Counted from the stretch's first letter, positions 9,571 through 23,458 are shown. The stretch is DNA of 32,000 bases from Candidatus Electrothrix sp. GW3-4 (GCF_037902255.1 NZ_CP147990.1:3630001-3662000), one strand, 5' to 3'. Notes: a model not told the origin generated them from the letters alone. Numbers and translations are program-made.

Positions 9571-10395
9571 TCAACAGACTCCCGAAGGACTCCTTGCCTT
9601 TTCCTGGAGCATCACCGGAGCTTGCAGGGCCTCCGCCATCGGGATAACCCTGTGTTTCTCTGCCAACCACTTGAAGAGACGTTCGAATTCCCTGTACAGC
9701 AGCTCGCGGTCTTCCTCCTGAAAGGCCGGAAGATCATGGAGCATGATAATATCGCCGGGATGCAGTTTATTGATAATTTTTTCGCTCAACCCAGCAATAT
9801 TGCGGTTGCCCCGATCAAGGGCGCGACAGCTGTAATTTACTGCACAAAGGTTCTCCTGCTCCAAGACCTTTTGGAGACGCGGACCGGTGATCCCCACCGG
9901 AGGCCGGAAGAGCAAGGGACGGACACCGTAGCCTGCCAAGACCTCCTGGGTTGTGTGGAGATCCTCCTGAATCTTCCGGGCAGTGCGCAGCATGAGAAAA
10001 TAATCATGCTCCCAGCTATGGTTGCCGATGCTATGGCCAGCAGCCAAAATCTGCTGGATCAACTCTGGATGCGCGGCCGCCTTTTTCCCGATCACAAAAA
10101 AGGTCGCAGGCAGACGGTAATGGGCAAGGAGCTCCAGCAGAATGGGCATAACTGCGGGGGACGGTCCATCATCAAAGGTCAGGACAATCCCCTCTGTTCC
10201 CGCTTGGGCCCTGCTGATGATAGGGAGAAAAAAACTGGTCCCAGGAAAAAACGGGGCGACGAAACAGAGAAACAGGAAAACAAATGAAGGGAGGGGGACC
10301 AGAGCAGGAGCGAGAATAAGGCAGAGCAGAGCCGCCAGCAGAGCGATGATGCCGATCTTTTCGCCTTTACAAAGTTTGTCGGAGATTCTCAACAT
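9571..10395 (-). CDS. Polysaccharide deacetylase family protein (NodB homology domain), membrane-anchored, 274 aa
   Basis: NodB motifs VLTFDDGP, ATFFVIG and GHSIGNHSWEH are present. The N-terminus contains hydrophobic helices. Confidence 0.9.
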   Translation of the reverse strand: MLRISDKLCKGEKIGIIALLAALLCLILAPALVPLPSFVFLFLCFVAPFFPGTSFFLPIISRAQAGTEGIVLTFDDGPSPAVMPILLELLAHYRLPATFFVIGKKAAAHPELIQQILAAGHSIGNHSWEHDYFLMLRTARKIQEDLHTTQEVLAGYGVRPLLFRPPVGITGPRLQKVLEQENLCAVNYSCRALDRGNRNIAGLSEKIINKLHPGDIIMLHDLPAFQEEDRELLYREFERLFKWLAEKHRVIPMAEALQAPVMLQEKARSPSGVC

Positions 10396-10841
10396 CGCCT
10401 GTTACTGGAGGGAAGCAACTCTCATTGGATATACTCGATGAAGCAGAGCCATCATTCTGGCTAAATCAACTTTTAACCATCTTGCATGAAAAGTAAACAG
10501 AAAATCACTGCTGATAGGATGGAGTGTACCCAGCCCGCTATCACAGGCGAAAATCAAACCGCGCAGTGATGTGGGTTACAGGGCGGGGTCGCGAGTTCGA
10601 ATCTCAGATTCAGGGCAATAACAAACCGGGTCACGCACTACGCACGCACTCAGTCAAACACAGCAGACATATCACGGTCGATCCTGCATAACCCGCTTCA
10701 ATACTTCTCCCCCCCTTTTCCTCGTCTATTTTCCCCCATTGTGTCAACCGTGCCAACTATTGTAATATATTTGAACTGCTGGAAGTTTAAGGATTGAGAA
10801 AGGAAAAAGACACAAGGAATAATTCAACATGTTTTTTTATT

Positions 10842-11081
10842 ATGAAACGGTTTGCTCTTTATTACAAGAAAGAACGTTTATCTCATTGCAAACTTCATGG
10901 CGCAATTGAGGCTGAAAATAGTACAAACGCATTTATAAAGGCTGTTAATACCATTCGAGCAGGCGGTCTTGATCCAGATGAATTTAGGGAATTTTATATC
11001 GTCCCTGTCACCCCTGACAACTCAGTGCAATACAAAATGCAATGTTACGGATGGGACGAGAGCGGAGATTTTCCGAGATAA
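10842..11081 (+). CDS. Hypothetical small protein (79 aa from the ATG at 10842; start uncertain)
   Basis: It is the only sizeable ORF in an AT-rich gap of about 1 kb. There is no convincing RBS and no family is recognised. Confidence 0.3.
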   Translation: MKRFALYYKKERLSHCKLHGAIEAENSTNAFIKAVNTIRAGGLDPDEFREFYIVPVTPDNSVQYKMQCYGWDESGDFPR

Positions 11082-11256
11082 CAACTGATAATGAAATATC
11101 GTCGTGGACTAACGCCAGGCTGTCGGGCTTTATTTCTGTAAATGGTGTAAACAAAGCCTCTTAAAACATACTGATACAAATATAATCAGCTAGATAAGGT
11201 AGACTCACCAACCTCTCACGCCGGTAGCCCGAACTACAAGGTCAAACCCCAGCCCC

Positions 11257-11294
11257 AAACAAAAAAAACCGGGCCACGTGCGGAACGTGCCCGG
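11257..11294 (-). terminator. Rho-independent terminator downstream of the SulP gene
   Basis: CCGGGCCACG-tgcggaa-CGTGCCCGG hairpin at 11269-11294 (9 bp with one bulged C). It is followed on the minus strand by a U-run of eight (plus-strand A-run at 11261-11268). Confidence 0.6.
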
Positions 11295-11474
11295 TGAGTT
11301 GAGGCAGAACGGCCTCCCAGAAGAGATACTAAGCTCCTACCGTTCCAAGGTCCTCAAACAGCACAACATGCTGTGGTGTTTGCAACCGGAGTAGTGCGAG
11401 CCCAGCGCCAGATCACATGGACATTACCCCATCAACCTGGAAGCCGAAAAAATAATCGGAGCATCTTCCTGGCG

Positions 11475-13052
11475 CTACACAGGCGAGTAATCCTCAAACC
11501 CATCCACAGCAACGGTGTACTCAGGGTCTTCGATGATGTCGACCTGAATGAGTTTATCTGCCTTATGGATAAGTTTCCGACAATCAGGGCTGAGATGGAG
11601 CAGACTGATCTTCTTGCCTGCCTGCTCATATTTTTGGGCCAATTTATTGATGGCCTCAATACCAGAATGGTCAGCGACCCTGGATTCCCTAAAGTCGATA
11701 ATAACTTCATCAGGATCGCTTTCCACCTCAAACTTACTGTTGAACATCTGCACGGAGCCAAAGAAGAGCGGCCCGAATATCTCATAATGCTTGACCCCGT
11801 TTTCATCAATGCGCTTTCTCGCCCTGATGCGGATGGCATTTTCCCAGGCAAAGACCAGGGCGGAAACAACAACCCCGGCAAGCACTGCAATGGCCAGATC
11901 AAACAGCACGGTTAAGACCGTGACCAGGAGGATGACCAGGGCATCGGAGAGAGGGATTTTATCAAGGACACCAAAGGTACTCCAGGCAAAGGTGCCAATC
12001 ACAACCATGAACATCAAGCCAACCAGGGCCGCCACCGGAATCATCTCGATATAGGTAGCGCCAAAGAGGATGAACAGGAGCAGCGACAAGGCCGCCACAA
12101 TGCCAGAGAGCCGTCCGCGTCCGCCTGACTTGATATTAATGATACTCTGGCCGATCATTGCACAACCGCCCATGCCGCCCATAAAGCCGTTCACAATATT
12201 GGCAGCGCCCTGAGCAATACTTTCCTTATTGGCATTGCCGTGGGTATTGGTCAATTCATCAATAAGATTCAAGGTCATCAGGGACTCAATCAGGCCCACA
12301 GAGGCAATGATTGCAGCATAGGGAAAGATAAACGCGAGGGTTTCCCAGCTCAAGGGAATAACCGGGACATGAAAGACGGGTAATCCGGCCTGGATACCGG
12401 CTCCCCCTTTGGCCTGGACAAAGGACAGGACAGTTTCTGTCTCAATCCCGGTGAAGATGACCAGCAAGGCAACCGTGATAATCGCGACTAGGGCAGCTGG
12501 CACCTTGGTCGTGAACTTGGGCAGGACATAAAGGATGGTCATGGTCAGGGCAACGAGTCCAAGCATGGTATAGAGAGGTGTGCCCTGCATCCATGCGCCA
12601 TCGGTCTTGAACATCTCCAGCTGGGCCAGAAAGATAACGATGGCCAGGCCATTGACAAAGCCCATCATCACCGGATGGGGGATGAGACGAACAAACTTAC
12701 CAAAGCGGAAGACCCCGGCCAGGACCTGCAACAAGCCAACCAGCAGGAGGGTGGCGAAGAGGTATTGCAGACCAGCACCCTCGCCCCCCATCTCTGTCCC
12801 TGTTTTGACCAGGGAGACCATAACAATGGCTGTGGCACCGGTGGCACCGGAGATCATCCCGGGACGACCACCAATCACTGAGGTCACCAAGCCCATCATA
12901 AAGGCCCCGTACAGACCAACGATCGGCGATACACCGGCAATAAAGGCAAAGGCAACGGCTTCCGGGACTAAAGCTATGGCCACCGTCAGCCCGGAAAGGA
13001 CGTCGTCTTTAACTGTACCTCTTTTATGCTCTATGAACTTAAATCTCTTCAT
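11475..13052 (-). CDS. SulP-family inorganic anion transporter with a C-terminal STAS domain, 525 aa
   Basis: The N-terminus DVLSGLTVAIALVPEAVAFAFIAGVSP and the multi-TM core are typical of SulP. The C-terminus YEIFGPLFFGSV...IIDFRESRVADHSGIEAINKL is STAS-like. Confidence 0.95.
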   Translation of the reverse strand: MKRFKFIEHKRGTVKDDVLSGLTVAIALVPEAVAFAFIAGVSPIVGLYGAFMMGLVTSVIGGRPGMISGATGATAIVMVSLVKTGTEMGGEGAGLQYLFATLLLVGLLQVLAGVFRFGKFVRLIPHPVMMGFVNGLAIVIFLAQLEMFKTDGAWMQGTPLYTMLGLVALTMTILYVLPKFTTKVPAALVAIITVALLVIFTGIETETVLSFVQAKGGAGIQAGLPVFHVPVIPLSWETLAFIFPYAAIIASVGLIESLMTLNLIDELTNTHGNANKESIAQGAANIVNGFMGGMGGCAMIGQSIINIKSGGRGRLSGIVAALSLLLFILFGATYIEMIPVAALVGLMFMVVIGTFAWSTFGVLDKIPLSDALVILLVTVLTVLFDLAIAVLAGVVVSALVFAWENAIRIRARKRIDENGVKHYEIFGPLFFGSVQMFNSKFEVESDPDEVIIDFRESRVADHSGIEAINKLAQKYEQAGKKISLLHLSPDCRKLIHKADKLIQVDIIEDPEYTVAVDGFEDYSPV

Positions 13053-13396
13053 CTTTTTCTACATCCATCTCCTTCATGCGTCATATAAGCATAGACCGGC
13101 ATAAACAAGCTGAACCACTCCTGTGTTTTGAGTTTTTAAAAATACAAAAATTACTCCATCGACGTAAGGGGTTGTTTATAGCATTTATTCGGCCTCAAGG
13201 GAATGATTCTTTTTGGTGATAGGGGGAGATTTCCGGTAAGAGAAGAGCAATGAAAGAACGGAGACGCGGGAGTAGAGAGAGGAAGGCAACTGGCTGTTGA
13301 CAATACGGTTTTATTACTGGTACTGTGCCCAGAAAAGATCTACCTGTTTAGATTTATTTTTCCAGATTACCCAACCTATTCAATGTAGGAGTATTG

Positions 13397-14656
13397 ATGA
13401 AAAATTTATTTCCAGGGTACTTTAGAGAATCCCAAGAAAATCTGAGAGAAATTTGGGATTCTTGCATTTTCGTATTTGATGCAAATATCTTACTGAATTT
13501 ATATCGATACTCAGATACTACAAGAAACGAATTTTTAGGCTTACTAGAAAAGATAAAGGATAGAGTCTGGCTGCCTCATCGGGCTGCCGAAGAGTACCTG
13601 AACAACCGGTTATCAGTAATAGACCAGCAAGAACGATCATATGATTCAACGATCAAATCTATCGAAAGTCTAAAAAGTGATTTAGACAACGCTAGGCAAC
13701 ACCCTTTTGTCAGCAAGCAGACTATGAAAAAATTTGATTCTGTAGTTCACGCCTTATGCGAGGAGCTAACCCATAACAAAGAAGTGCATACTCAAAGAAT
13801 ATCAAATGACGAAATAAAAAATTCAATCTCTCAAATTTTTGAAAATAGAGTTGGCTTGCCTTTTGAAAAAGAGAAATTAGAAAAGCTAATTATTGAAGGC
13901 GAAGAGCGCTATAAACAAAAAATTCCGCCAGGATTTAAGGACGGATCGAAATCCACAGACAGCGAAGTGTTCAGCGAACGGTGCCGAAGATTTGGAGATT
14001 TAATTGTTTGGAAGCAAGTTCTAGAACATTCTATCGAAGTTGCCAAAGGCGTTGTACTTGTTACAGATGACAAAAAAGAAGACTGGTGGGAAAAATTCAA
14101 AGGTAAAACTATTGGGCCCCGCCCTGAATTGGTGAAAGAATTTAAAGAACACGCGAATAATACTTTCCATATGTATCAAGCTGACCGGTTCCTTGAGCTA
14201 GCGCGGGAAAACCTCGACGAACAAGTTAGTCAACAGATCGTTGAAGAAGTTCGTGAAGTAATGCGCCGAGACAAAATGGCTTTTCGTAAAAAACAAAAAC
14301 TTGAGAATGTTAGCCGCCAAAAAAACAAGATTAACAGAATGATGAAAGAGTTAGAACATGCTCGTTATCAACTATTAGAGCATCAACACGAAATGGTTTC
14401 ACTACAAGAGAAGGATCATATGCTGGAAACAGAAAGAATGGAGTTGCGAAAACTCAGAGAAAGTTTCCCAGATGATGAATGTGAAATTGAAATGGAGCCG
14501 TTCATACGGCATTACTCTGATTATCATTTAGTCAAAAGGCGATTAAAAGAATCAAAAGATAGGTATCAAGAGTTACAACATCGAGCCATACAGCTGGAAC
14601 ATGAACTGGCCCGACAAATGAAATACATCAAACGAGAAAATGCAGCTGCCTCGTAA
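13397..14656 (+). CDS. PIN-like domain protein (PIN_8/DUF4935-like) with a long C-terminal coiled coil, 419 aa
   Basis: ATG at 13397 with TAGGAG 5 nt upstream. N-terminal IFVFDANILLNLYRYS and later VLVTDDKKEDWW match PIN-like nuclease acidic motifs. The C-terminal ~140 aa are highly charged and heptad-like. The gene is markedly AT-rich. A possible promoter is TTGACA at 13297-13302, then 18 nt, then TACTGT. Confidence 0.75.
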   Translation: MKNLFPGYFRESQENLREIWDSCIFVFDANILLNLYRYSDTTRNEFLGLLEKIKDRVWLPHRAAEEYLNNRLSVIDQQERSYDSTIKSIESLKSDLDNARQHPFVSKQTMKKFDSVVHALCEELTHNKEVHTQRISNDEIKNSISQIFENRVGLPFEKEKLEKLIIEGEERYKQKIPPGFKDGSKSTDSEVFSERCRRFGDLIVWKQVLEHSIEVAKGVVLVTDDKKEDWWEKFKGKTIGPRPELVKEFKEHANNTFHMYQADRFLELARENLDEQVSQQIVEEVREVMRRDKMAFRKKQKLENVSRQKNKINRMMKELEHARYQLLEHQHEMVSLQEKDHMLETERMELRKLRESFPDDECEIEMEPFIRHYSDYHLVKRRLKESKDRYQELQHRAIQLEHELARQMKYIKRENAAAS

Positions 14657-14694
14657 CATTGCTGCTGACTCTGATATCCTTCACCACGCGCCTC

Positions 14695-14915
14695 ATCTCA
14701 ATCATACGTGTGGCTTTATCTCACAAGCACTTGTGAGATAATCTCGATAATGCGTATGAGATAAAGTCAATAACGTTTGTGAGATTCAAAACTGCCTACT
14801 TAGGAAGAAAAGAGATAAGCACTTGCGAGCCTCCCTCCTAACTACTTATCTCCCTCTCTCATACGTACATTCCACTGCGCCACCGCTCCCCGATAACGCG
14901 ACGAGCTTATCTCAG
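14695..14915. repeat. Cluster of at least 7 copies (both orientations) of a TTATCTCA(C/T)A / T(G/A)TGAGATAA motif, including a perfect 12+12 palindrome
   Basis: Perfect palindrome TTATCTCACAAG-ca-CTTGTGAGATAA at 14716-14741. Further copies: TATGAGATAAAG (14755-14766), TTTGTGAGATTC (14776-14787), GAGATAAGCACTTGCGAG (14812-14829), TTATCTCCCT (14846-14855) and TTATCTCAGA (14907-14916). TCATACGT recurs at about 14702 and about 14860. Confidence 0.7.
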
Positions 14916-15093
14916 AAATACCCCCCCCTTCACCTTTCCCTCCTCTTCCTCCTGATTCCCTGCCAGCCGAAGCCGCAGAGACGCAGGTTCCCGTGGCTTG
15001 CGTGCAGTTGTTTTCGCCATTCCAGCAGAGCCGGAAGCCTTCTTCCAACTGGGGAATACCATACTTGGGGCGCAGGACCCGGCTGAATGCCAT
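14912..15093 (-). pseudogene. Decayed copy 1 of the 3' end of the protoporphyrinogen-oxidase-family gene (frameshifted, ~60-bp internal deletion)
   Basis: It aligns by eye with 19165-19403. ORF 14842..15093 begins MAFSRVLRPKYGIPQLEEG, and 17 of these residues are identical to ...FSRVLRPKYGIPQLEEG of the intact gene. A second frame reads LPALLEWRKQLHASHGNLRLCGFGWQGI, against YPVLLDWRRQLHASNDNLHLCGFGWQGIG in the intact gene. Confidence 0.8.
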
Positions 15094-15154
15094 TTCTTTG
15101 AGATCTGAACAGCCCTGATCAGATTACGCCCCAGAGTTTTGAAGAAGCCTGCTC

Positions 15155-15532
15155 CTATCGTAATGTAACAAATGTCTCAAGAGGAATCCTTTCCCTTTTA
15201 CTTGCACCGATCACCTCAACCCCCTGCGTCCCGATTATCCCTTTCAGGCTGATCGCTGTCGTCCATACCGGTTCTGGATGAGGACCGGGAATAGCCTCTT
15301 TCAATCTGCCGCCGCATCCTCCTACAACTTCAATCTCCCAATATTCGGGCTGGTCATCATATTGATGGGGAACCAATTTCACGTCAACAACACCGCTGAC
15401 AAGAACTTTCCCGGTAACTATCAGTACATGAACATCATCCCAAAGAGTAACAATACCGGTATGTTCAAAATCAACGAGTCGGCAGCCTGTGGAGAGGGGT
15501 AATTCATAAAATGCCTTGATACTGTCTTTCAT
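15155..15532 (-). CDS. Hypothetical protein, 125 aa (cargo between the two gene-fragment copies)
   Basis: ORF 15155..15604 trimmed to the ATG at 15530-15532, which is preceded by AAGGAG. No family recognised (MKDSIKAFYELPLSTGCRLVDFEHTG...YWEIEVVGG...). Confidence 0.55.
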   Translation of the reverse strand: MKDSIKAFYELPLSTGCRLVDFEHTGIVTLWDDVHVLIVTGKVLVSGVVDVKLVPHQYDDQPEYWEIEVVGGCGGRLKEAIPGPHPEPVWTTAISLKGIIGTQGVEVIGASKRERIPLETFVTLR

Positions 15533-15631
15533 AGCTCTGCTCCTTGTGAAATTTTGCAGAAAAAAAAAACAACAACCATCCCTTTCCTTAAAGCAGAAAT
15601 CCACGGAGATATCAAGAATTATACTGTCCAG

Positions 15632-15730
15632 CCCCCCTTCACCTCTTCCTCCTTCTCCTCCTGATAGCCAGCCAAAGCCGCAGAGATGCAGATTCTCATT
15701 GCTTGCATGCAGTTGTCGTCGCCACTCCAG
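15632..15730 (-). pseudogene. Decayed copy 2 of the 3' end of the protoporphyrinogen-oxidase-family gene (~100 bp, same internal deletion)
   Basis: cccccttcacctcttcctccttctcctcctgatagccagccaaagccgcagagatgcagattctcattgcttgcatgcagttgtcgtcgccactccag aligns with 19176-19338 and with copy 1. The plus-strand ORFs 14823..15086 and 15516..15776 share QPKPQR(R/C)RF...LACSC.RHS. Confidence 0.75.
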
Positions 15731-15784
15731 GCAAAGAACGTCTATGAATGAGCAGGTAAGCGGCGCATTAAGCTGAAGCCAGGT

Positions 15785-16810
15785 CTACCTAATCTCTTTC
15801 CTCGCTTCAGCTGGAGTTTTCCCGGACCAGCGCTTAAAGGCCTTCCGAAACCCCCGGTCACTTGCAAAACCCAGCCGAAAGGCTATCTCATCAATACTGA
15901 GACTTTTATCGGCCAGCATGCCCATCGCATTGACATATCTGACCTCATCCAGCAGGCTCCCCGGCGTAACATCATCTGGCAGACGTCGACGTAACGTACT
16001 GATGCTCATACCCATGCTCCGAGCCAGACCGGCCACCGAGTAATCCCCCTTGATCGTATTACACATGGCAGCCCGACGGATATCTGCAATCCCGTCTGCC
16101 AAGTCCAGACCGAGTTCCTGACGCAGACGCTGCAGACGCTGCTCCAGTGAGCATCGCACTTCCTGACTCCCTCGACGATTCGAGCGTTTTTTCAGCTCCT
16201 GGGTACTGAGTACCAGGGCATTAAACGCAGCTCGAAAGCTGACCGGGACACCAAAAAAATCCCTATAGATGGCAACATCTCCCCGTGCCTTATGACGAAA
16301 CTGGACGCGGGTCAATAAGCCCTTGCCAAAGCACTCCTCTATGATTCGGGCCCCGATGCCAAGTCCGATTTCCGCCCCCATCCCCTGATCGACCTCGCTC
16401 AGCGGCTGGCTGGTACGAAAAAAGGTCTCTTTTGAAGCGGAAATCGCTTTGATTTCAAGGCGGTCAGCAAGCAAATCGCAATGATCGACAAAGAGATCCA
16501 GCATGGTCTGCGCATCAGGGGCACGAAGCAGGAGTCTCCCTGGAGTGCCGAAATAAGAGACCGGAGCAATCCCTGCCAGCTCCAGCGCTATATTTCGTTC
16601 TGGAAAATTTCTGATCAGCATTTGGAAGAAATCTTCAAAAAAGTCTTCAGGTAGATAATTTTCAGGATCCATCAGTCGACCGGGCTCGATGCCGGTTTCC
16701 TTGCTGATGTATTCTACGGACAAGCCAAGATACGCCGCAAAAAACACAGCAACGGTCCCCATGCTGCTCAGCATACGACATTCCCTAGGCGTTATACAGA
16801 ATGGCTGCAT
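15785..16810 (-). CDS. AraC-family transcriptional regulator (N-terminal ligand-binding-like domain plus C-terminal HTH_18), ~341 aa
   Basis: ORF 15785..16900 trimmed to the ATG at 16808-16810, which is preceded by GAGGAG. The C-terminus SVAGLARSMGMSISTLRRRL...IDEIAFRLGFASDRGFRKAFKRWSGKTPAEARK is a classic AraC dual HTH. Confidence 0.9.
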   Translation of the reverse strand: MQPFCITPRECRMLSSMGTVAVFFAAYLGLSVEYISKETGIEPGRLMDPENYLPEDFFEDFFQMLIRNFPERNIALELAGIAPVSYFGTPGRLLLRAPDAQTMLDLFVDHCDLLADRLEIKAISASKETFFRTSQPLSEVDQGMGAEIGLGIGARIIEECFGKGLLTRVQFRHKARGDVAIYRDFFGVPVSFRAAFNALVLSTQELKKRSNRRGSQEVRCSLEQRLQRLRQELGLDLADGIADIRRAAMCNTIKGDYSVAGLARSMGMSISTLRRRLPDDVTPGSLLDEVRYVNAMGMLADKSLSIDEIAFRLGFASDRGFRKAFKRWSGKTPAEARKEIR

Positions 16811-17401
16811 GAGTCTCTCCTCATAAACAATAGGACAAATACTTTTTAATAACGCTGCCTGAAAAGTTCCTTTTTTTGAGGCATAACAGCATGGAAGCAA
16901 AACAAAAAACGACGTACTATTTAAGTATAGAGATGATTAAAAACAAACCCGACTGTATTGCCAAGGTATATTTTCCAATCATGACCCCACGTTACTCGGG
17001 AAAATCGGAAGATAAAGATAGATAAACAAATAATCATACAAACCTATTAACCAATTTACGAAATCAAAATCTCATCAAAAAAACAAAAAAAGAGAGATAC
17101 TGGAATGATTGCCCGTGAAGCCGTAAGAATATTGATGCTCAGCCCGATCTATTTTCGTCTGACAGCTCGGCAACGCCTTGAGCTGGTCAAGGAATACTGT
17201 CAGGACATGAACAAGTTCAATATTAGCAGAGAAAAAAAATGCTGACCTCAATGTTCCGTTTTTTGCTTCATAAAGGCATGGGGGCAAAAGGATCAAATTT
17301 TCACAACAACTCACTGACGAAAAACCAGAGGGTTATTCCGCACTAACATATCAGAACAAAATAAAAAAAGCAGCAAGATAACATTACAAGAGGAGGATCA
17401 C

Positions 17402-19024
17402 ATGCCCGAAATTACTCGTCCCAGCGGCTTAACTATTTCCCTGCCCGCTACTTACAGAATTGGCACGCTCAGGTCTGAACCGGAAAGCCCGCCGCGTAAT
17501 GCCGAACCCCGGCGGGGTGGACGTCGAGCAGAACCTCGGTCCAGTAAGGAACGGAGGTTCGAAGGAGCGGAAGCGTTTCCCGAGGGAACAGCTATGCTCA
17601 ACGCCCTGAAAGAGCAGGATATGCAGGTGGTGGACAGCTTTACCCTGGAACCACTCCGTTATCGAGCTGAGGCTGCTGACGTGCGGGAAAAACAGAATAT
17701 CAGGCTCCAGCAAGATCTTCAAAAAAACGAAGGTGCTGTGGTTCTTATTGCGCAGAAAGGCGTTTATTCCTGGGTATTTCCAAAAGAAGAGACAAAGACC
17801 CTGCAATCCGATTCCCGCCAGAATGTACGGGGGCAGACTGCCGCCCGATCCGCCAATTTTCACTTTGATGTGCAGTCGCTCAGCAAGGCCGGAAAAAAGG
17901 CGACGCAACGTGGAAAAACAACGGACTTCATATCCTCTACGATCATTGTCATGAAGTTTGTCGCTCACCTTCCTGTCGATTCAGCAATAAAGTTTTTGGA
18001 ACGCAATGTCGAGCCCGGCCTAGTGCTCATCACCTCTCAAGACGCCGGGCAGTGGCTTCGGGTTGAAGATATGCGTTCGATCACCTTACCTACGGATCGC
18101 CGGGCTAAAATACTGCTCCTTGTTCACGGTACCTTTTCAAGCACCACGGGCAGCTTCGGTGCCCTCAGTTATACAGAGCCGGGACAGAAGTTTCTGACCA
18201 AGGTCTTGGAAAAATATGACATTGTGATCGGATTTGATCATCGCACACTCAGCGATGATCCGAAGGCCAATGCTCTGGATCTGCTCAAAAGACTTCAGCA
18301 GGGAACCTGGCCGCATCCCCCTAAGGTGGATGCCATTGCATTCAGTCGTGGTGGCTTAGTGTTACGTTGGCTGGTACAGCGTCTGTTACCTGTTGCTGAC
18401 TGGCCAGCCCGAATTGAACGGGCAGTCTTTGTCGCCTGCACGAACGGCGGCACTATCTTGGCTGAGCCGGAAAATTGGCATGCACTGGTTGATCTGTATA
18501 CAAATCTTGCTGTCGGCTTAAGCCGCCTGCTCGGGATGATACCTCAGGCCGCTGTGCCGCTGAATATTTTTTCCGGCATCCTGCAGGGACTCGGAGCGTT
18601 GGTAAAGTTTATCGCAACCGAGGCGGTGAGCGGCGGTGCGGTGCCAGGACTGGCTGCCATGGAGCCAGATGGCGAGTTTGTAATCCAACTCAACAGCAAC
18701 GCGTCAGCAGCGCCGAAAGAAACTCAGCTCTATGCTATAACCTCACAATTTGAGCCCAAGCTGTCCGGTGAGACGTATGAGCCAGAGGAACTGGCACCCG
18801 AGTTTACCCTACGCCTGGCAGATAGACTTGTCGATCGGCTCATGAATAACGCCCCCAACGACGTCGTGGTTGATACCGCATCCATGACCACATTTGATCC
18901 AGATACGCAGCAGCTCGTACAGGATAAATACGAGTTCGGTGTAACCTCGAAAATCTACCATCTAAATTATTTTACCCGTTCTGAAGTAACCGAGATCCTT
19001 ACCCATTGGCTGCAACTCGAATAA
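17402..19024 (+). CDS. Alpha/beta-hydrolase-fold (esterase/lipase-like) protein with an Arg/Pro/Glu-rich N-terminal extension, 540 aa
   Basis: ATG with AGGAGG upstream. ILLLVHGTFSS...IGFDHRTLS...AIAFSRGGLVLRWL resembles the oxyanion-hole and nucleophile-elbow (xSxG) arrangement of serine hydrolases. The specific family is not identified. Confidence 0.65.
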   Translation: MPEITRPSGLTISLPATYRIGTLRSEPESPPRNAEPRRGGRRAEPRSSKERRFEGAEAFPEGTAMLNALKEQDMQVVDSFTLEPLRYRAEAADVREKQNIRLQQDLQKNEGAVVLIAQKGVYSWVFPKEETKTLQSDSRQNVRGQTAARSANFHFDVQSLSKAGKKATQRGKTTDFISSTIIVMKFVAHLPVDSAIKFLERNVEPGLVLITSQDAGQWLRVEDMRSITLPTDRRAKILLLVHGTFSSTTGSFGALSYTEPGQKFLTKVLEKYDIVIGFDHRTLSDDPKANALDLLKRLQQGTWPHPPKVDAIAFSRGGLVLRWLVQRLLPVADWPARIERAVFVACTNGGTILAEPENWHALVDLYTNLAVGLSRLLGMIPQAAVPLNIFSGILQGLGALVKFIATEAVSGGAVPGLAAMEPDGEFVIQLNSNASAAPKETQLYAITSQFEPKLSGETYEPEELAPEFTLRLADRLVDRLMNNAPNDVVVDTASMTTFDPDTQQLVQDKYEFGVTSKIYHLNYFTRSEVTEILTHWLQLE

Positions 19025-19109
19025 AATTTCCTCTTCTAGATTATGCCGCTTTTTCTCCAATTCCGGCAGCTGCAGCCAAAAATACTTGATGAGGAGACAT
19101 CCAGCAGGC

Positions 19110-19131
19110 CCCTGGCCTTTCGAGGCCAGGG
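19110..19131. terminator. Strong GC hairpin between convergent genes (possible bidirectional terminator; no U-tract)
   Basis: CCCTGGCC-tttcga-GGCCAGGG, a perfect 8-bp stem, lies between the stop codons at 19024 (+) and 19165 (-). Confidence 0.3.
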
Positions 19132-19164
19132 AGCCGATGAAAAATAGAGACTAACCACCTACTT

Positions 19165-20580
19165 TCAAAAATACACCCCCTTCACCTCGTCCTCCTTTTC
19201 CTCCTGATACCCAGCCAAAATACGCTTGGCCATTTCCCAGGCCTGTTTATGCATATCATTGATGCCGATCCCCTGCCAGCCGAACCCGCAAAGGTGCAAA
19301 TTATCATTGCTCGCATGCAGTTGCCGCCGCCAGTCCAGTAGGACAGGATACCCTTCTTCTAATTGAGGAATACCGTATTTCGGTCGCAAGACCCGACTAA
19401 ACGATGGTGGTTCTGGGAGATGAATGAGCTGCTTCAGATCCTCATAGACTTTTTCGACCAACGCCTCATCAGCAAGGTCTAGTCGTTCTGGATGCCTACG
19501 CCCACCGACCAAGGCTTCCATCAGAACATGGCCTTCAGGGGCCCGGCCCGAAAACATATGCGAGGAAAATAGGGCACCGAGGGCAAAACGTTGCTCCTGC
19601 TCTGGGGCAAGATAGCCAAAACCGAAAGGAATATTCGCCTTGTCTGTAAAGCCAAGGGCGACTGTGGCGATACGGGCTTCTGGAATCGCAGGAACAGGCG
19701 GCGCAGGCAGGTCGCTGTCCGTAAGAAGTTCCAGACAACGGTTCACTGGCAGAGCAATGATCAGGTGTCGGGCCTGTAACTCCAGCTGCCCGGTTCGCAC
19801 CACCCACCCTCCGTCAACCTGGACAATGGAGCGAGCAGCTGTTCGATACATGATCTCTTTATTGGGAATCAACTTGGCTGCCATGGCCTGGGGGAGCCGA
19901 GCCATTCCTGCCTTAAAACTGGTCATGGCAGGCAGACCTTTTTTCTCTTTTTTACTGCCCTCCTTCTTGCTTTCTTTACGAGCAGCCCACATCTTATGCA
20001 CAGCACCTTTCAGCACCGAACCATGGGTTTGCTCCAAATTATGCAGACCAGGCATAACCGCTTCCAGCTTCAGCCGATCAATATCACCGGCATAGGTCCC
20101 CGTAAAAACAGCATCGGCAAAAGGCAATAAAGACTTGCCAAAACGATGCGCTACCCATTGGGCCACAGTTGGCTCATCAGATAGAGGCTTTTTCCAGAGA
20201 TCGCCGAGCACCCGCAGCTTAGCAGGCCAAGAAACCAGTGGTGCCTTGAGCACCTTGCCAGGGCTTTGGGGAATGAGCTTCAGCTCACCATCAAGACAGA
20301 TATAGCGGACAAATTCGGAGAGAGGGGCCTTCTCGACCTCCTCGGTCAAACCTGCCTCATGCACCAGGACCCGGCTTTCCAGGGCATTATCCAAAAAGCC
20401 GTGGGCACCGGCCTCGGCAAGATAGCCCTCCTCAATATGCGAGCGAACAGCCCCACCGGGATGATCCCCTTGCTCAATAATCAGTAAAGAGATATCAGGC
20501 TCTTTATGTTTCAAAAAGGTAGCTGCAGCCAGCCCGGACAGACCGGCACCGATAATCAATACGTCAGCAGATGGTTGCAT
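19165..20580 (-). CDS. hemY: FAD-dependent protoporphyrinogen/coproporphyrinogen oxidase family protein (HemY-like), ~471 aa
   Basis: ORF 19165..20748 trimmed to the ATG at 20578-20580 so that the dinucleotide-binding motif DVLIIGAGLSGLAAA is N-terminal. Further family-typical segments are HPGGAVRS, EAGAHGF, ...LHLCGFGWQGIGINDM. The upstream extension would overlap the kinase gene. Confidence 0.8.
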   Translation of the reverse strand: MQPSADVLIIGAGLSGLAAATFLKHKEPDISLLIIEQGDHPGGAVRSHIEEGYLAEAGAHGFLDNALESRVLVHEAGLTEEVEKAPLSEFVRYICLDGELKLIPQSPGKVLKAPLVSWPAKLRVLGDLWKKPLSDEPTVAQWVAHRFGKSLLPFADAVFTGTYAGDIDRLKLEAVMPGLHNLEQTHGSVLKGAVHKMWAARKESKKEGSKKEKKGLPAMTSFKAGMARLPQAMAAKLIPNKEIMYRTAARSIVQVDGGWVVRTGQLELQARHLIIALPVNRCLELLTDSDLPAPPVPAIPEARIATVALGFTDKANIPFGFGYLAPEQEQRFALGALFSSHMFSGRAPEGHVLMEALVGGRRHPERLDLADEALVEKVYEDLKQLIHLPEPPSFSRVLRPKYGIPQLEEGYPVLLDWRRQLHASNDNLHLCGFGWQGIGINDMHKQAWEMAKRILAGYQEEKEDEVKGVYF

Positions 20581-20740
20581 AATGATAAACCATAAAGGTA
20601 TTCTTTCTCGTGATTGAGACCTCCGCCTCTTGCGCTGTCTCACCAAAGAGAAGTTCAAGGAGAAAAATAGGATATTATATCCTGACCCTGCAAAGGTCAA
20701 GCAGGAACAAAAAAACAGCTCTGGGCCCCTGACAAGCTGC

Positions 20741-23458
20741 TCATTCATCTTCTTCCTGCGTTACACCTAAGACCTGACTGACAGTGGCCGCCAATTTACT
20801 CTTGAGCACAGGCTTCATAAGATACGCCTTGATCCCTAAGGACTTGGCTTTTTCTTCGTTGATCATTTCACTGAAGCCGGTACACAGGATAACCGGAATA
20901 TCAGGATGTTGTTCCAAAATCTTTTGAGCTAAGTCTATCCCACTCATCTTGGGCATGGCCATATCAGTGATGACCAGGTCAAAGGCATCAGGCTGTTGGG
21001 CAAATATCTCCCAGGCTGCAAGGCTGTCGGTTTCTATCGTCACCTGGTAGCCTAATTGCATGAGCATATAGCGTGTAATATCTACAACGGCCTCTTCATC
21101 ATCAATAACAAGAATATGCCCTGTACCTGTGGGATCCTTTTTCCCAGCCAGGAAGCGCTCATTGGCCCGCTTTGCCTCTTCCTTCAACTGTGGCAAATAC
21201 ACCCGAAAGGTTGTCCCCTGTCCCGGCTCCGAATACACCGATATCGAGCCTCCATGATCATGGACAATGGCATGGACCGTGGCAAGCCCCAACCCGGTCC
21301 CTCCTTGCTCTTTTTTAGTAGTGAAATAGGGCTCAAAGATCTTTTCGATCATATCAGGTGCGATCCCATGCCCGCTATCACTCACCTCTATCAGAATATA
21401 CTCCCCAGGCTGCAACCCTATTTTATGCAGCGATTCCTCTGCCGTCAGGGTCAGAGGATGCATGGCAACCCCCAATATTCCCTCTGTTTCCATCATGGCC
21501 TGGTAGGCATTGGTACAGAGATTAACCACCACCTGATGCACCTGGGTTGGATCCGCCATAATCTTGCCGCAGGCATTATCTATATTTTGCTTAATCGCAA
21601 TAGACGCCGGGATGGAAGAGCGGAGCAGCTTTAAGGCCTCTTTAACAATAAGATGCGGTTCTACCGGCTGTAATGCCTGTTCTGTCTGCCGACTGAAACT
21701 CAGGATCTGCTTGACCAGATCCCTGGCCCGAAAGGCAGCGCCGTATATTTGCTGGGCCTGAAAGCTCTCCACCGACTCCTTAGGCAGACTTTCGCTCAGC
21801 ATTTCCGCATATCCCATAATGGGAGACAAAATATTATTAAAATCATGGGCTATGCCGCCTGCAAGCGTACCTATCGCTTCCATTTTCTGGGCCTGTCGGA
21901 CCTTAGACTCGAGTTGTTTCTGCCCAGAGATATTTTTGGCAAAGCAGACAATCGCGGTCAGCTGCCTTGTCTCATTAAAAATAGGGGCAGAAGAGACAAG
22001 AAAAAAATTCGACTTTCCATGATATTGATGCTCAATCTGACAGGAAAAAGGTCTCTGCTCCCGTATTGATTTCACTGCCGGGCAGTCTTTGCAGGGAAAA
22101 GATGCCTCACGGAACAACTCAAAACATTGCAGGCCTACCAGCCCTCCTGGCTGGACGTCAAAATACTGCCCTGTCGCCCTGTTGGCCCGCAACACCCGCA
22201 GGTCAGGGTCGAGAAGAAAGATTATCTCATTAATAGCATCAAATGTCCGCTGCCATTCATCACGGGCCTGGACCAGAAGACGTTCAGCCTCCTTTCTGGC
22301 GCTGACATCCTGGACATTCATTATTCGCCTGATTTTTTGCCCTGCACTATCACGCACCACGGTGATATTCACCTCAACAGGAAAGCTCCCCTCTGCTTTT
22401 CGGAGATGGCGTGATTCAAAAATATGATGTCCTTCTTTCTCTGCCAGCTGCACATGTTTGCCAATGTCATCCTGAAATCTTTTCTCGACAAGAGCAAGAT
22501 AAGGTTTCCCCTGCAGCTCTTCAGGGGAAGCGCCATGCATCTCTGCAAAGGCCGGATTCATCATATCCAGCGAGAATGTCTCTGCCGTACTCAAGGCTAT
22601 TCCCCACTGGGCATGCTTGAAAATCTCCGCCCATTCCTGCAACTCGGTCTCATGCTGCATTTTTTTCCGAAGTTGAGACCGCATCTTGTTATAAAAGGCC
22701 CAAAAGACAGGGAGCAGAGCTAACCACAACAGGGCATAGACAAAATAAATATGTCGCACCACATCGTCATAGACCTTTTGAAAGGATGCCAGGGGCAACG
22801 CAATCCCCACTCCGCCACGGATATCCCCCTCTTTATAACCCTGCCAGGCATGACATTTTAAGCAATCAGCCTTCGTGACCATGGGACGCATAAGGCGAAG
22901 ATAGGGATCGTTTTGTATCTCTGTATATTCTACAACCTCTTGCGTACCCTGCTCAAAGGCGTGCAAGGCCTTTGTCTCCCACTCATCAGGGGCATTCTCC
23001 GGGTTGAGAGGCCGCAAACTGGTAATTCGTCCTTTTACTCCGTACAATTTTTCGAATTTATTCATCATCTGATGGAGCATATAGGCCGGATTCATCAGAG
23101 TAAGTTTTTTACCAGAGGGTGTAACAATATCCCTTTCCGGGATGTGGCTCAGATTCGGGTTTGGCGGTGTTTCCTCAGTAATGGGCACATAGACGCCCCC
23201 ATGAGAAGAGGCCCAAAAACGAAAGGCCTGATCCTTATTGAAATGGGATCGGGCCTCGTTTTCCACCAGTTCCGCCAACTGACGGCGCTCAACATGAATA
23301 TTCCAGGCAAGGGACATCCCGATAATAAGCGTCCACAGGATAATACCTGTCAAAAAAGCAAGGTAAAGCGTTTTAAAGGGAGATGGTTGCATATCGTCTT
23401 TCGGTTGTTTCTGAACGGTTGAACTCAATGACGTATTTTGATGAAAATGCTTAAGCAT
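20741..23458 (-). CDS. Hybrid sensor histidine kinase/response regulator: TM, DUF3365 (CxxCH heme-binding) sensor, PAS, HisKA, HATPase_c, REC; 905 aa
   Basis: ATG preceded by AAGGTGG. Periplasmic YLRLMRPMVTKADCLKCHAWQGY...IRGGVGIALP is DUF3365-like with CLKCH. H-box GGIAHDFNNIL; ATPase GGTGLGLA; receiver ILVIDDEE...LVITDMAMPKMSG. Confidence 0.9.
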   Translation of the reverse strand: MLKHFHQNTSLSSTVQKQPKDDMQPSPFKTLYLAFLTGIILWTLIIGMSLAWNIHVERRQLAELVENEARSHFNKDQAFRFWASSHGGVYVPITEETPPNPNLSHIPERDIVTPSGKKLTLMNPAYMLHQMMNKFEKLYGVKGRITSLRPLNPENAPDEWETKALHAFEQGTQEVVEYTEIQNDPYLRLMRPMVTKADCLKCHAWQGYKEGDIRGGVGIALPLASFQKVYDDVVRHIYFVYALLWLALLPVFWAFYNKMRSQLRKKMQHETELQEWAEIFKHAQWGIALSTAETFSLDMMNPAFAEMHGASPEELQGKPYLALVEKRFQDDIGKHVQLAEKEGHHIFESRHLRKAEGSFPVEVNITVVRDSAGQKIRRIMNVQDVSARKEAERLLVQARDEWQRTFDAINEIIFLLDPDLRVLRANRATGQYFDVQPGGLVGLQCFELFREASFPCKDCPAVKSIREQRPFSCQIEHQYHGKSNFFLVSSAPIFNETRQLTAIVCFAKNISGQKQLESKVRQAQKMEAIGTLAGGIAHDFNNILSPIMGYAEMLSESLPKESVESFQAQQIYGAAFRARDLVKQILSFSRQTEQALQPVEPHLIVKEALKLLRSSIPASIAIKQNIDNACGKIMADPTQVHQVVVNLCTNAYQAMMETEGILGVAMHPLTLTAEESLHKIGLQPGEYILIEVSDSGHGIAPDMIEKIFEPYFTTKKEQGGTGLGLATVHAIVHDHGGSISVYSEPGQGTTFRVYLPQLKEEAKRANERFLAGKKDPTGTGHILVIDDEEAVVDITRYMLMQLGYQVTIETDSLAAWEIFAQQPDAFDLVITDMAMPKMSGIDLAQKILEQHPDIPVILCTGFSEMINEEKAKSLGIKAYLMKPVLKSKLAATVSQVLGVTQEEDE

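Follow-up and report, generated by a model that had tools for sequence, protein, structure and literature searches.

How does a gene that is itself intact come to be followed by two further copies of its own 3' end, with genes unrelated to it set between them? The question is raised by a stretch of 32,000 nucleotides (nt) from the cable bacterium Candidatus Electrothrix sp. GW3-4 (NZ_CP147990.1:3630001-3662000; hereafter the window, in whose coordinates all positions are given unless another locus is named), which carries hemY, the gene of the haem-biosynthesis enzyme protoporphyrinogen oxidase, and, beyond its 3' end, the transporter gene sulP. An initial annotation of this DNA had noticed three same-orientation copies of the hemY 3' end and had read them as the footprint of integrative elements inserted at the 3' end of the gene. 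The three copies were confirmed by a repeat search and by nhmmer; the agent proposed for them was not borne out, as discussed below. We consider it probable, with some reserve, that this is a 3'-end displacement array, situated in a hemY-sulP recombination hotspot of cable bacteria and formed by a displacement that is anchored in homology and requires no integrase.

The search profile was built from the last 312 nt of hemY in 15 cable-bacterial alleles and run with nhmmer, and model positions refer to it. All three copies are on the minus strand. The portion of the current hemY 3' end that recurs in both fragments lies at 19165-19405 (model positions 72-312), as delimited by repeats, alignments and the profile. 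Fragment 1 (14912-15091) is a hemY 3' end with a 60-nt internal deletion and a 1-nt frameshift, and is matched in two pieces (15091-14954, model 72-210, E 3e-38; 14956-14912, model 269-312, a weak match with E 0.03). Fragment 2 (15633-15731) has a 64-nt internal deletion and has lost the stop region (15731-15667, model 138-202, E 6e-16; 15676-15633, model 258-301, E 1e-8). The repeat search of the window gave one direct-repeat family of three copies at 14954-15035, 15659-15740 and 19267-19348 and a second at 14924-14967, 15633-15676 and 19176-19219, and local alignments agree with both families. The hemY homology of the two fragments is far above chance and not of low complexity, and a worry to that effect in the initial annotation can be dismissed. 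The profile search found no further copy of the hemY 3' end in the window. Because two other public assemblies (Logan) reproduce the whole arrangement, with 100% and 99.8% identity, it is not an assembly artefact.

Both fragments lack a segment that encodes GIGINDMHKQAWEMAKRIL and is present in all of the ~20 functional alleles examined. The initial annotation was right that about 60 nt are missing from both, but the gap is not the same one: the 60-nt deletion of fragment 1 ends at ...ATC and is accompanied by the 1-nt deletion after codon 17, and the 64-nt deletion of fragment 2 falls between two GGCTGG repeats, which in the intact 3' end are read as CCAGCC on the plus strand at 19211-19216 and 19276-19281 (not 19275-19280, as first given for the second). 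The same segment was lost twice, by two separate deletions and not by a single inherited one. The longest exact match between the intact hemY end and the fragments is now 13-14 nt.

The codons of the fragments tell where they spent their past. In the stretch encoding FSRVLRPKYGIPQLEEG, 11 of the 17 codons differ between fragment 1 and the intact gene and all 11 differences are synonymous, exactly as the initial annotation had counted. Of the 44 codons that can be compared once the 1-nt deletion is corrected, the two sequences share 17, and the others are changed synonymously in 21 cases and non-synonymously in 6; fragment 2, compared over 21 codons, shows eight synonymous and two non-synonymous differences. 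Most of the non-synonymous states in the fragments recur in functional alleles of relatives (e.g., the HG of fragment 1 in locus L033), and decay since displacement amounts to one frameshift and one or two private non-synonymous changes. Because the differences are mainly synonymous, the fragments were parts of working alleles until recently, having spent almost their whole divergence time in working genes and having decayed little afterwards. Their descent from functional, diverged alleles rather than from decayed local duplicates, as the initial annotation had argued, is upheld by these counts. Fragment 1 is 87% identical to the E. laxa allele and 75% identical to the intact gene of its own window. 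The intact end and the two fragments are placed inside the marine Electrothrix hemY clade by neighbour-joining trees as well as by identity tables; since all three ends lie within the Electrothrix allele diversity, the donors are likely to have been other Electrothrix genomes.

About 25 cable-bacterial hemY or AraC loci, collected by a genome scan, a metagenome scan and contig look-ups, were available, and the origin of the fragments was judged against about 15 related loci. In marine Electrothrix the usual frame is htpG, a histidine kinase gene, hemY, a variable interval and sulP. The interval is empty in E. marina (L002) and L013, where about 1-1.3 kilobases (kb) without a gene separate hemY from sulP and no hemY fragment is found. 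It is likewise free of fragments where it holds a PIN_8 gene (E. laxa, L001), a helix-turn-helix (HTH) regulator with a C5 DNA methylase (L033), or a large gene of no assigned function (L037, where the contig ends before sulP), and also in E. aestuarii (L029), where a partner gene, a 46-amino-acid (aa) open reading frame (ORF), an AraC gene and several genes including an IS66 transposase occupy it. In E. aarhusensis (L009), a radical S-adenosylmethionine (SAM) gene, a 225-aa gene and an AraC gene are followed by one hemY fragment (model 243-311) and three more genes. In L012, from another Electrothrix, a 125-aa gene comes directly after hemY and only a vestige of a displaced end is seen. AraC thus occupies the hemY-sulP interval of L009 and L029; in Electrothrix sp. 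Rat3 (L027) it is found a short way upstream of sulP.

Comparison of these loci indicates where each fragment came from. Fragment 1, the next 54 nt and the PIN_8 gene beyond them align without a break with the hemY end, the post-stop sequence and the PIN_8 gene of E. laxa, at 83-86% identity, and because of this collinearity we regard fragment 1 as the native 3' end that once closed hemY in its present context. The 54 nt (14858-14911, minus strand; aligned with L001, L027 and L009) are the native post-hemY sequence, which directly follows the intact hemY stop codon in L001 and into which the fragments behind AraC in L027 and L009 also run. L012 retains a vestige of a displaced native end behind its 125-aa gene, in the form of GGTCTGGCAGGG and then this native post-stop sequence. 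In the window, fragment 2 together with the 125-aa gene is collinear with the hemY end and the 125-aa gene of L012 (81%), which indicates that fragment 2 travelled together with that gene. Each module thus has the form of a hemY 3' end plus cargo, every insertion having pushed the previous end downstream; displacement by successive insertions is well supported, because the fragments are collinear with hemY loci of relatives and the empty intervals are without fragments. The initial annotation had named fragments in cargo-free relatives, or a paralogue as their source, as findings that would speak against its claim of insertion. The cargo-free L002 and L013 carry none, and the contexts of the fragments are collinear with hemY loci instead of pointing to a paralogue.

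Fragment 1 reaches 66 nt further upstream in hemY than fragment 2 (model 72 vs 138). A fragment starting at 138 could not yield positions 72-137, and therefore the junction between the 125-aa gene and fragment 1 formed in an intact gene. That junction would have arisen either before the AraC/DUF7379 module arrived or in another lineage that supplied the block. It is common to the window and L012, and GW3-4 is so far the only genome in which the AraC trailer runs into fragment 2. At least three recombination events are therefore recorded. At least two successive insertions at the hemY 3' end, as the initial annotation had it, are borne out by the fragments and the collinear relatives; its sequence of AraC plus hydrolase, then the 125-aa ORF, if meant as an order in time, is probably reversed or beyond resolution, as fragment 1 starts further upstream.

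In the mechanism that we propose, the incoming DNA would stem from a different Electrothrix lineage, would carry cargo behind a 3' part of hemY, and would pair with the resident hemY through the shared 3' homology. The pairing might be resolved by a single crossover of a circular intermediate or, alternatively, by a homologous join in hemY together with an illegitimate join at microhomology at the far end. hemY would be kept intact with the 3' end of the donor, and the resident 3' end would be moved downstream of the cargo. One such event would have set the 125-aa gene ahead of the native end (fragment 1), and another would have set the DUF7379 and AraC genes ahead of the end that became fragment 2. 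The recombination is what we infer here, from the ends, their functional origin, their collinearity with relatives and the empty sites described above, and from loci in which no recombinase was read. The circular variant has the advantage that it might explain why old module-fragment junctions are common to genomes with modules 19% apart, yet the displaced ends were recently functional: the junction would travel with the circle, and most of the displaced end would be supplied by the recipient.

Homologous recombination between hemY copies does occur, as can be seen in Rat3. In this strain the intact hemY (L032) lies ~41 kb from the L027 block on the opposite strand of one contig (JAVQMD010000001.1), and the block has the order hemY fragment, 232-aa gene, AraC, hemY fragment, sulP. 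Between the intact end (L032, 11230-11407) and the first fragment (L027, 8789-8968) there is an identical run of 53 nt with flanks that are 70-85% identical, and other close alleles differ at 4-5 positions within the run. This pattern suggests a crossover with inversion, or gene conversion, between the inverted hemY copies. The 53-nt run lies exactly within the segment that is missing from both fragments of the window. The loss of this most conserved stretch of ~60 nt from both fragments may stabilise the array against excision or inversion, because it would have taken away the one stretch of sufficient length to recombine with the intact gene; the exact matches that are left do not exceed 14 nt. 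Slippage between the GGCTGG...ATC repeats, without selection, would be a simpler explanation of the deletions.

The present 3' end of hemY was also inspected for traces of the exchange. From the start point of fragment 1 to that of fragment 2 (19405-19339), identity to every relative is unusually low, at 70-77% vs 79-90% in the flanks, which would fit, marginally, a mosaic 3' end; sliding identity along hemY showed no sharp recombination breakpoint. In 19333-19422, which roughly spans the fragment start points, substitutions private to GW3-4 against seven close relatives reach ~2x the gene average, a density equalled by about 5% of windows of that size.

Several points weigh against the mechanism that we propose. 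No donor molecule, circle or junction read was observed, and the mechanism is read from anatomy alone. The junctions of fragment 2 in the window and of the first Rat3 fragment lie within ~3 nt of each other (model 135-138), as a site-specific enzyme predicts, the chance of two junctions among five coinciding in this way being about 20%. A recombinase might act in trans, the part of the genome read being 32 kb of 4.64 Mb. Homology-facilitated illegitimate recombination would call for a homologous anchor at one side and 3-10 nt of microhomology at the other; where the AraC trailer meets fragment 2 there may be such a microhomology, CTGG or GCTGG, but it depends on a hemY remnant in the trailer to which the hemY profile gives no match. 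A mosaic origin of the present end is weakly supported, as ~5% of 66-nt windows hold as many window-private substitutions. The variant with linear DNA would require that cable bacteria take up such DNA, by natural transformation or in a similar way. Going further than homology-anchored displacement as such, one may speculate that the hemY 3' end serves as a portable homology handle, with small gene modules that cable bacteria exchange: they would excise as circles by recombination between the hemY end and the copy downstream of it, re-insert into the hemY of another lineage by single homologous crossover without a dedicated recombinase, and become fixed only when the displaced copy loses the ~60 nt. 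A housekeeping gene would then be a site of gene mobility that needs no integrase and has a stabilisation step of its own. The two independent deletions of the window and the inversion in Rat3 would fit this idea; even so, it strikes us as rather doubtful.

The explanation closest to the initial annotation is that the locus holds remnants of small integrative or mobilisable islands, of the type of e14 and phage 21 at icd or of accreted integrative and conjugative elements (ICEs) and cis-mobilisable elements (CIMEs), which a tyrosine or serine recombinase would have inserted at an attachment site (attB) in the hemY 3' end, the recombinase having since been lost or being encoded elsewhere and acting in trans. 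The architecture is the one classically predicted, in that an intact gene with a replacement 3' end is followed by same-orientation displaced ends, one at the far junction, and sites are unoccupied in relatives (L002, L013). In addition, two independent junctions coincide at model 135-138, and several junctions and deletions lie at CTGG or GGCTGG motifs. What speaks against such islands is the content of the loci. Recombinase, excisionase, replication and transfer genes are all missing from the window and the other loci. In particular, no recombinase was found by Pfam among the 20 main ORFs of the window, including all of the repeat region, which agrees with what the initial annotation had stated, nor among the cargo ORFs of L009 and L012 (Pfam) or in the Pfam lists of L020-L038, and the only mobility gene in related loci is the IS66 transposase of L029, away from any fragment. 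The fragments start at model positions 72, 138, 135, 174 and 243, so that the boundaries do not share one position or core, and no exact att-like core was found, matches between the intact end and the fragments being ≤14 nt. Chromosomal genes of an ordinary kind make up the cargo, which comprises a regulator conserved in cable bacteria, the partner ORF of that regulator and single orphans; the replacement ends belong to the ordinary alleles of Electrothrix and not to an element-specific lineage, and no viral contig scanned carries the hemY end. We judge site-specific integration unlikely, if worth serious attention.

A purely local origin, in which the resident hemY 3' end was duplicated within this genome, in tandem or segmentally, and then decayed without any part played by foreign alleles, might be suspected from copies that are close together in the same orientation, and the short GGCTGG direct repeats could promote slippage. 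Neutral pseudogene decay, however, cannot produce 25% DNA divergence in which 21 of the 27 differing codons are synonymous, nor does local duplication agree with the identities of fragment 1, which are 86-87% to the alleles of E. laxa, L003 and L033 and 75% to the intact gene of the same window, or with fragments that are each collinear with the hemY locus of a different relative. Such an origin seems to us very improbable indeed. An array already ancestral in Electrothrix, whose modules and fragments were lost elsewhere through the direct hemY repeats, has more to commend it and is still improbable. The AraC trailer/hemY junction is partly common to the window and Rat3, L012 and the window have in common the join between the 125-aa gene and the native end, the order hemY, partner gene, 46-aa ORF, AraC recurs in L009, L018, L019 and L029, and recombination between direct repeats would restore a scar-free site as in L002 and L013. 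Yet the fragments are barely decayed while the 125-aa modules of the window and L012 differ by 19%; displaced ends that are younger than the modules are better explained by repeated re-insertion or transfer, and an ancestral array would still require the same displacement events, only earlier. Homology-anchored displacement therefore remains our preferred reading of the locus.

The intact hemY (19165-20580, minus strand) encodes a protoporphyrinogen oxidase of 471 aa. Its TIGR00562 score is 196.7 bits against a cut-off of 97.85, with residues 7-458 of 474 covered, the ORF matches Pfam Amino_oxidase, and an NCBI protein of Ca. Electrothrix sp. GW3-4 with 471 aa is 100% identical to it. Because that protein has 471 aa, the true gene is probably 19165-20580 rather than the longer ORF 19165-20748 on the same strand. 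The open frame extends 56 codons upstream (20581-20748) to an ATG at 20748, which overlaps the stop of a gene for a 905-aa histidine kinase/response-regulator hybrid (20741-23458); the extension is probably untranslated, as homologues begin at MQPSADV.

Next to hemY and convergent with it lies the first gene of the proximal module, which encodes a 540-aa DUF7362/DUF7379 protein (17402-19024, plus strand; Pfam E 7e-66 and 1e-12) and is missing from all related loci compared. The DUF7379 protein shows motifs resembling those of alpha/beta-hydrolases (HG..., AFSRGG), and its DUF7379 region is 24-30% identical to part of CHAT-domain-annotated proteins on plasmids and megaplasmids of Ruegeria, Paracoccus, Azotobacter and others. 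A plasmid origin of the gene was considered and rejected, the matches being only such 24-30% stretches within CHAT-domain proteins. The position between the hemY stop and the 46-aa ORF/AraC pair is filled differently from locus to locus: by the DUF7362/DUF7379 gene in the window, by the radical-SAM gene and the gene of a 225-aa protein in L009 (11524-13294), by the gene of a 399-aa protein partly similar to the L009 radical-SAM protein in L029 (8280-9479), L018 and L019, and by that of a 232-aa protein of no assigned function in L027 (9083-9781). It is a second replaceable slot with conserved flanks.

The 46-aa ORF (17105-17245, plus strand) is divergent from AraC. By tblastn, its homologues, with 62-78% identity, adjoin AraC homologues in L009, L029, L018, L019 and L036, and it is also present in the Electronema locus L005, where an AraC homologue was not detected. 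In L009 it lies near a PapB/QhpD-like radical-SAM maturase. Its product might be a peptide precursor or a small regulator. The second gene of the proximal module encodes a 341-aa AraC-family regulator (15785-16810, minus strand; Pfam Arabinose_bd and HTH_18) that is QhpR-like, its NCBIfam QhpR match falling below the cut-off. Its homologues have 56-88% identity throughout Electrothrix and Electronema, and since the subfamily is widespread in cable bacteria, usually with the divergent 46-aa ORF, we do not regard the AraC gene as foreign cargo. The gene is followed by a non-coding trailer of 53 nt (15732-15784, minus strand; delimited by alignments), the first ~37 nt of which are homologous to the trailer in Rat3 (L027). 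From this homology alone, it may tentatively be supposed that an older, decayed hemY remnant lies inside the trailer, which the hemY profile does not detect. An upstream extension of the fragments into the cargo trailers was supported by shuffle-controlled local alignment in L027 only and not in the window, and the profile agrees.

The cargo of the distal module is the 125-aa ORF (15155-15532, minus strand), for which no Pfam, NCBIfam or PADLOC family was found. Its homologue directly behind hemY in L012 is 77-79% identical. A mobile context of this gene was rejected, its distant homologues (38-49%) sitting in unrelated housekeeping neighbourhoods, as was the identity of the cargo as a defence system, PADLOC giving no matches among the window genes. 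A phage or provirus origin was rejected as well: viral contigs showed no match to the C-terminal half of HemY or to a conserved 26-nt hemY pattern, and phage records gave no match to 14800-19450 in a distant blastn search.

Downstream of the displaced native end, the PIN_8 (PIN-like) gene (13394-14656, plus strand; Pfam PIN_8 E 6e-64) belongs to the resident context, has a low G+C content (0.38) and is collinear with L001 at 84% DNA identity. Between its 3' end and fragment 1, overlapping imperfect palindromes with 29-nt arms that are 76% complementary occupy 14711-14785, and both independent Logan contigs of the locus stop within them, at 14755-14758. The sub-interval from the native post-hemY sequence to sulP (window 13279-14858) is also variable, without hemY scars: it contains PIN_8 in the window and L001, an HTH regulator and a C5 DNA methylase in L033, nucleotidyltransferase, ion-channel and pentapeptide genes in L009, the IS66 transposase and others in L029 and the large gene in L037, and is empty in L002 and L013. 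The conserved far border of the variable interval is the gene of the SulP-family transporter (11475-13052, minus strand; Pfam Sulfate_transp and STAS), with amino-acid identities of 91-94% in L001, L002, L009, L013, L027, L029 and L033. Beyond it, ~1.1 kb without an ORF of ≥100 aa separate sulP from a polysaccharide deacetylase gene (10395-11475); at the matching position in Rat3, E. marina, L013 and E. aarhusensis, a 629-aa Na/Pi cotransporter gene adjoins sulP. No trace of this gene was found by tblastn of the window, from which it appears to have been deleted. No tRNA gene was found in the window.

To our knowledge, cable bacteria have not yet been grown in pure culture, and gene flow among them is known from genomes only. 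The hemY-sulP interval represents a hotspot of gene turnover in these bacteria. The locus also speaks for caution in reading displaced 3' ends as the trace of a lost integrative element, because recombination anchored in the gene can leave the same scar.

The classical scar of this shape is that of e14 and phage 21, which are reportedly integrated in icd of E. coli. Like them, the hemY locus has a replacement 3' end, the native end at the far junction and mostly synonymous differences; unlike them, as they are said to possess an integrase and a defined core, it has no integrase, common core or phage genes. Streptococcus thermophilus has integrative elements and CIMEs accreted in tandem on the 3' end of its fda gene. 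The tandem cargo blocks split by copies of the 3' end of the gene, some of them without a recombinase, resemble the array described here, but the CIMEs are bounded by conserved att sites to which a related integrase responds, whereas the boundaries at hemY vary and none of the relatives was found to carry a related element with an integrase.

A closer likeness is found in systems that work without an integrase. In rhs loci, a circle with a core fragment and cargo is proposed to excise and re-insert by single crossover, displacing the C-terminal part of the gene, and the displaced fragments are phylogenetically limited to the clade of the resident gene (Jackson et al., 2009; PMC2935791). As in rhs and in orphan cdiA-CT/cdiI arrays, the intact hemY is followed by same-orientation 3' fragments; as in rhs, the fragments retain differing lengths of the conserved sequence upstream, each of them has one or more genes of its own behind it, all belong to the clade of the resident gene, and there is no integrase. 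In the window, the DUF7379 and AraC genes precede fragment 2 and the 125-aa gene precedes fragment 1. The difference lies in what is displaced. In rhs this is a polymorphic toxin tip with its immunity gene, and the diversity of the tip is the point; here it is the conserved flavin adenine dinucleotide (FAD)-binding C-terminus of a housekeeping enzyme of haem biosynthesis, the ends are equivalent, the cargo is unrelated and falls into no defence or toxin family, and what was displaced remains as a scar without function. If the model of module circles is true, displacement of the rhs type would extend from toxin genes to housekeeping genes, and there would be a testable reason for the parallel deletions; otherwise the locus would be an ordinary recombination scar, with hemY intact and no functional consequence evident.

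For the arrays of type VI secretion effector and immunity genes in Vibrio cholerae, homology-facilitated illegitimate recombination was proposed, and at this locus ordinary homologous recombination also brings about replacement without a scar (Kirchberger et al., 2017; PMC5361080). There, as is probable at hemY, a conserved gene upstream anchors one insertion after another, and what was present before, effector 3' ends included, is moved downstream (PMC5361080). The shifted immunity genes of V. cholerae are kept by selection, in contrast to the hemY locus, where no comparable function is evident, and organism, gene and cargo differ. The hemY locus seems to work like the rhs, cdiA and type VI secretion arrays without being a member of them. 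We therefore place it with a known kind, the 3'-end displacement arrays, within which it would be unusual for its housekeeping gene, its unrelated cargo and the parallel loss of the recombinogenic core.

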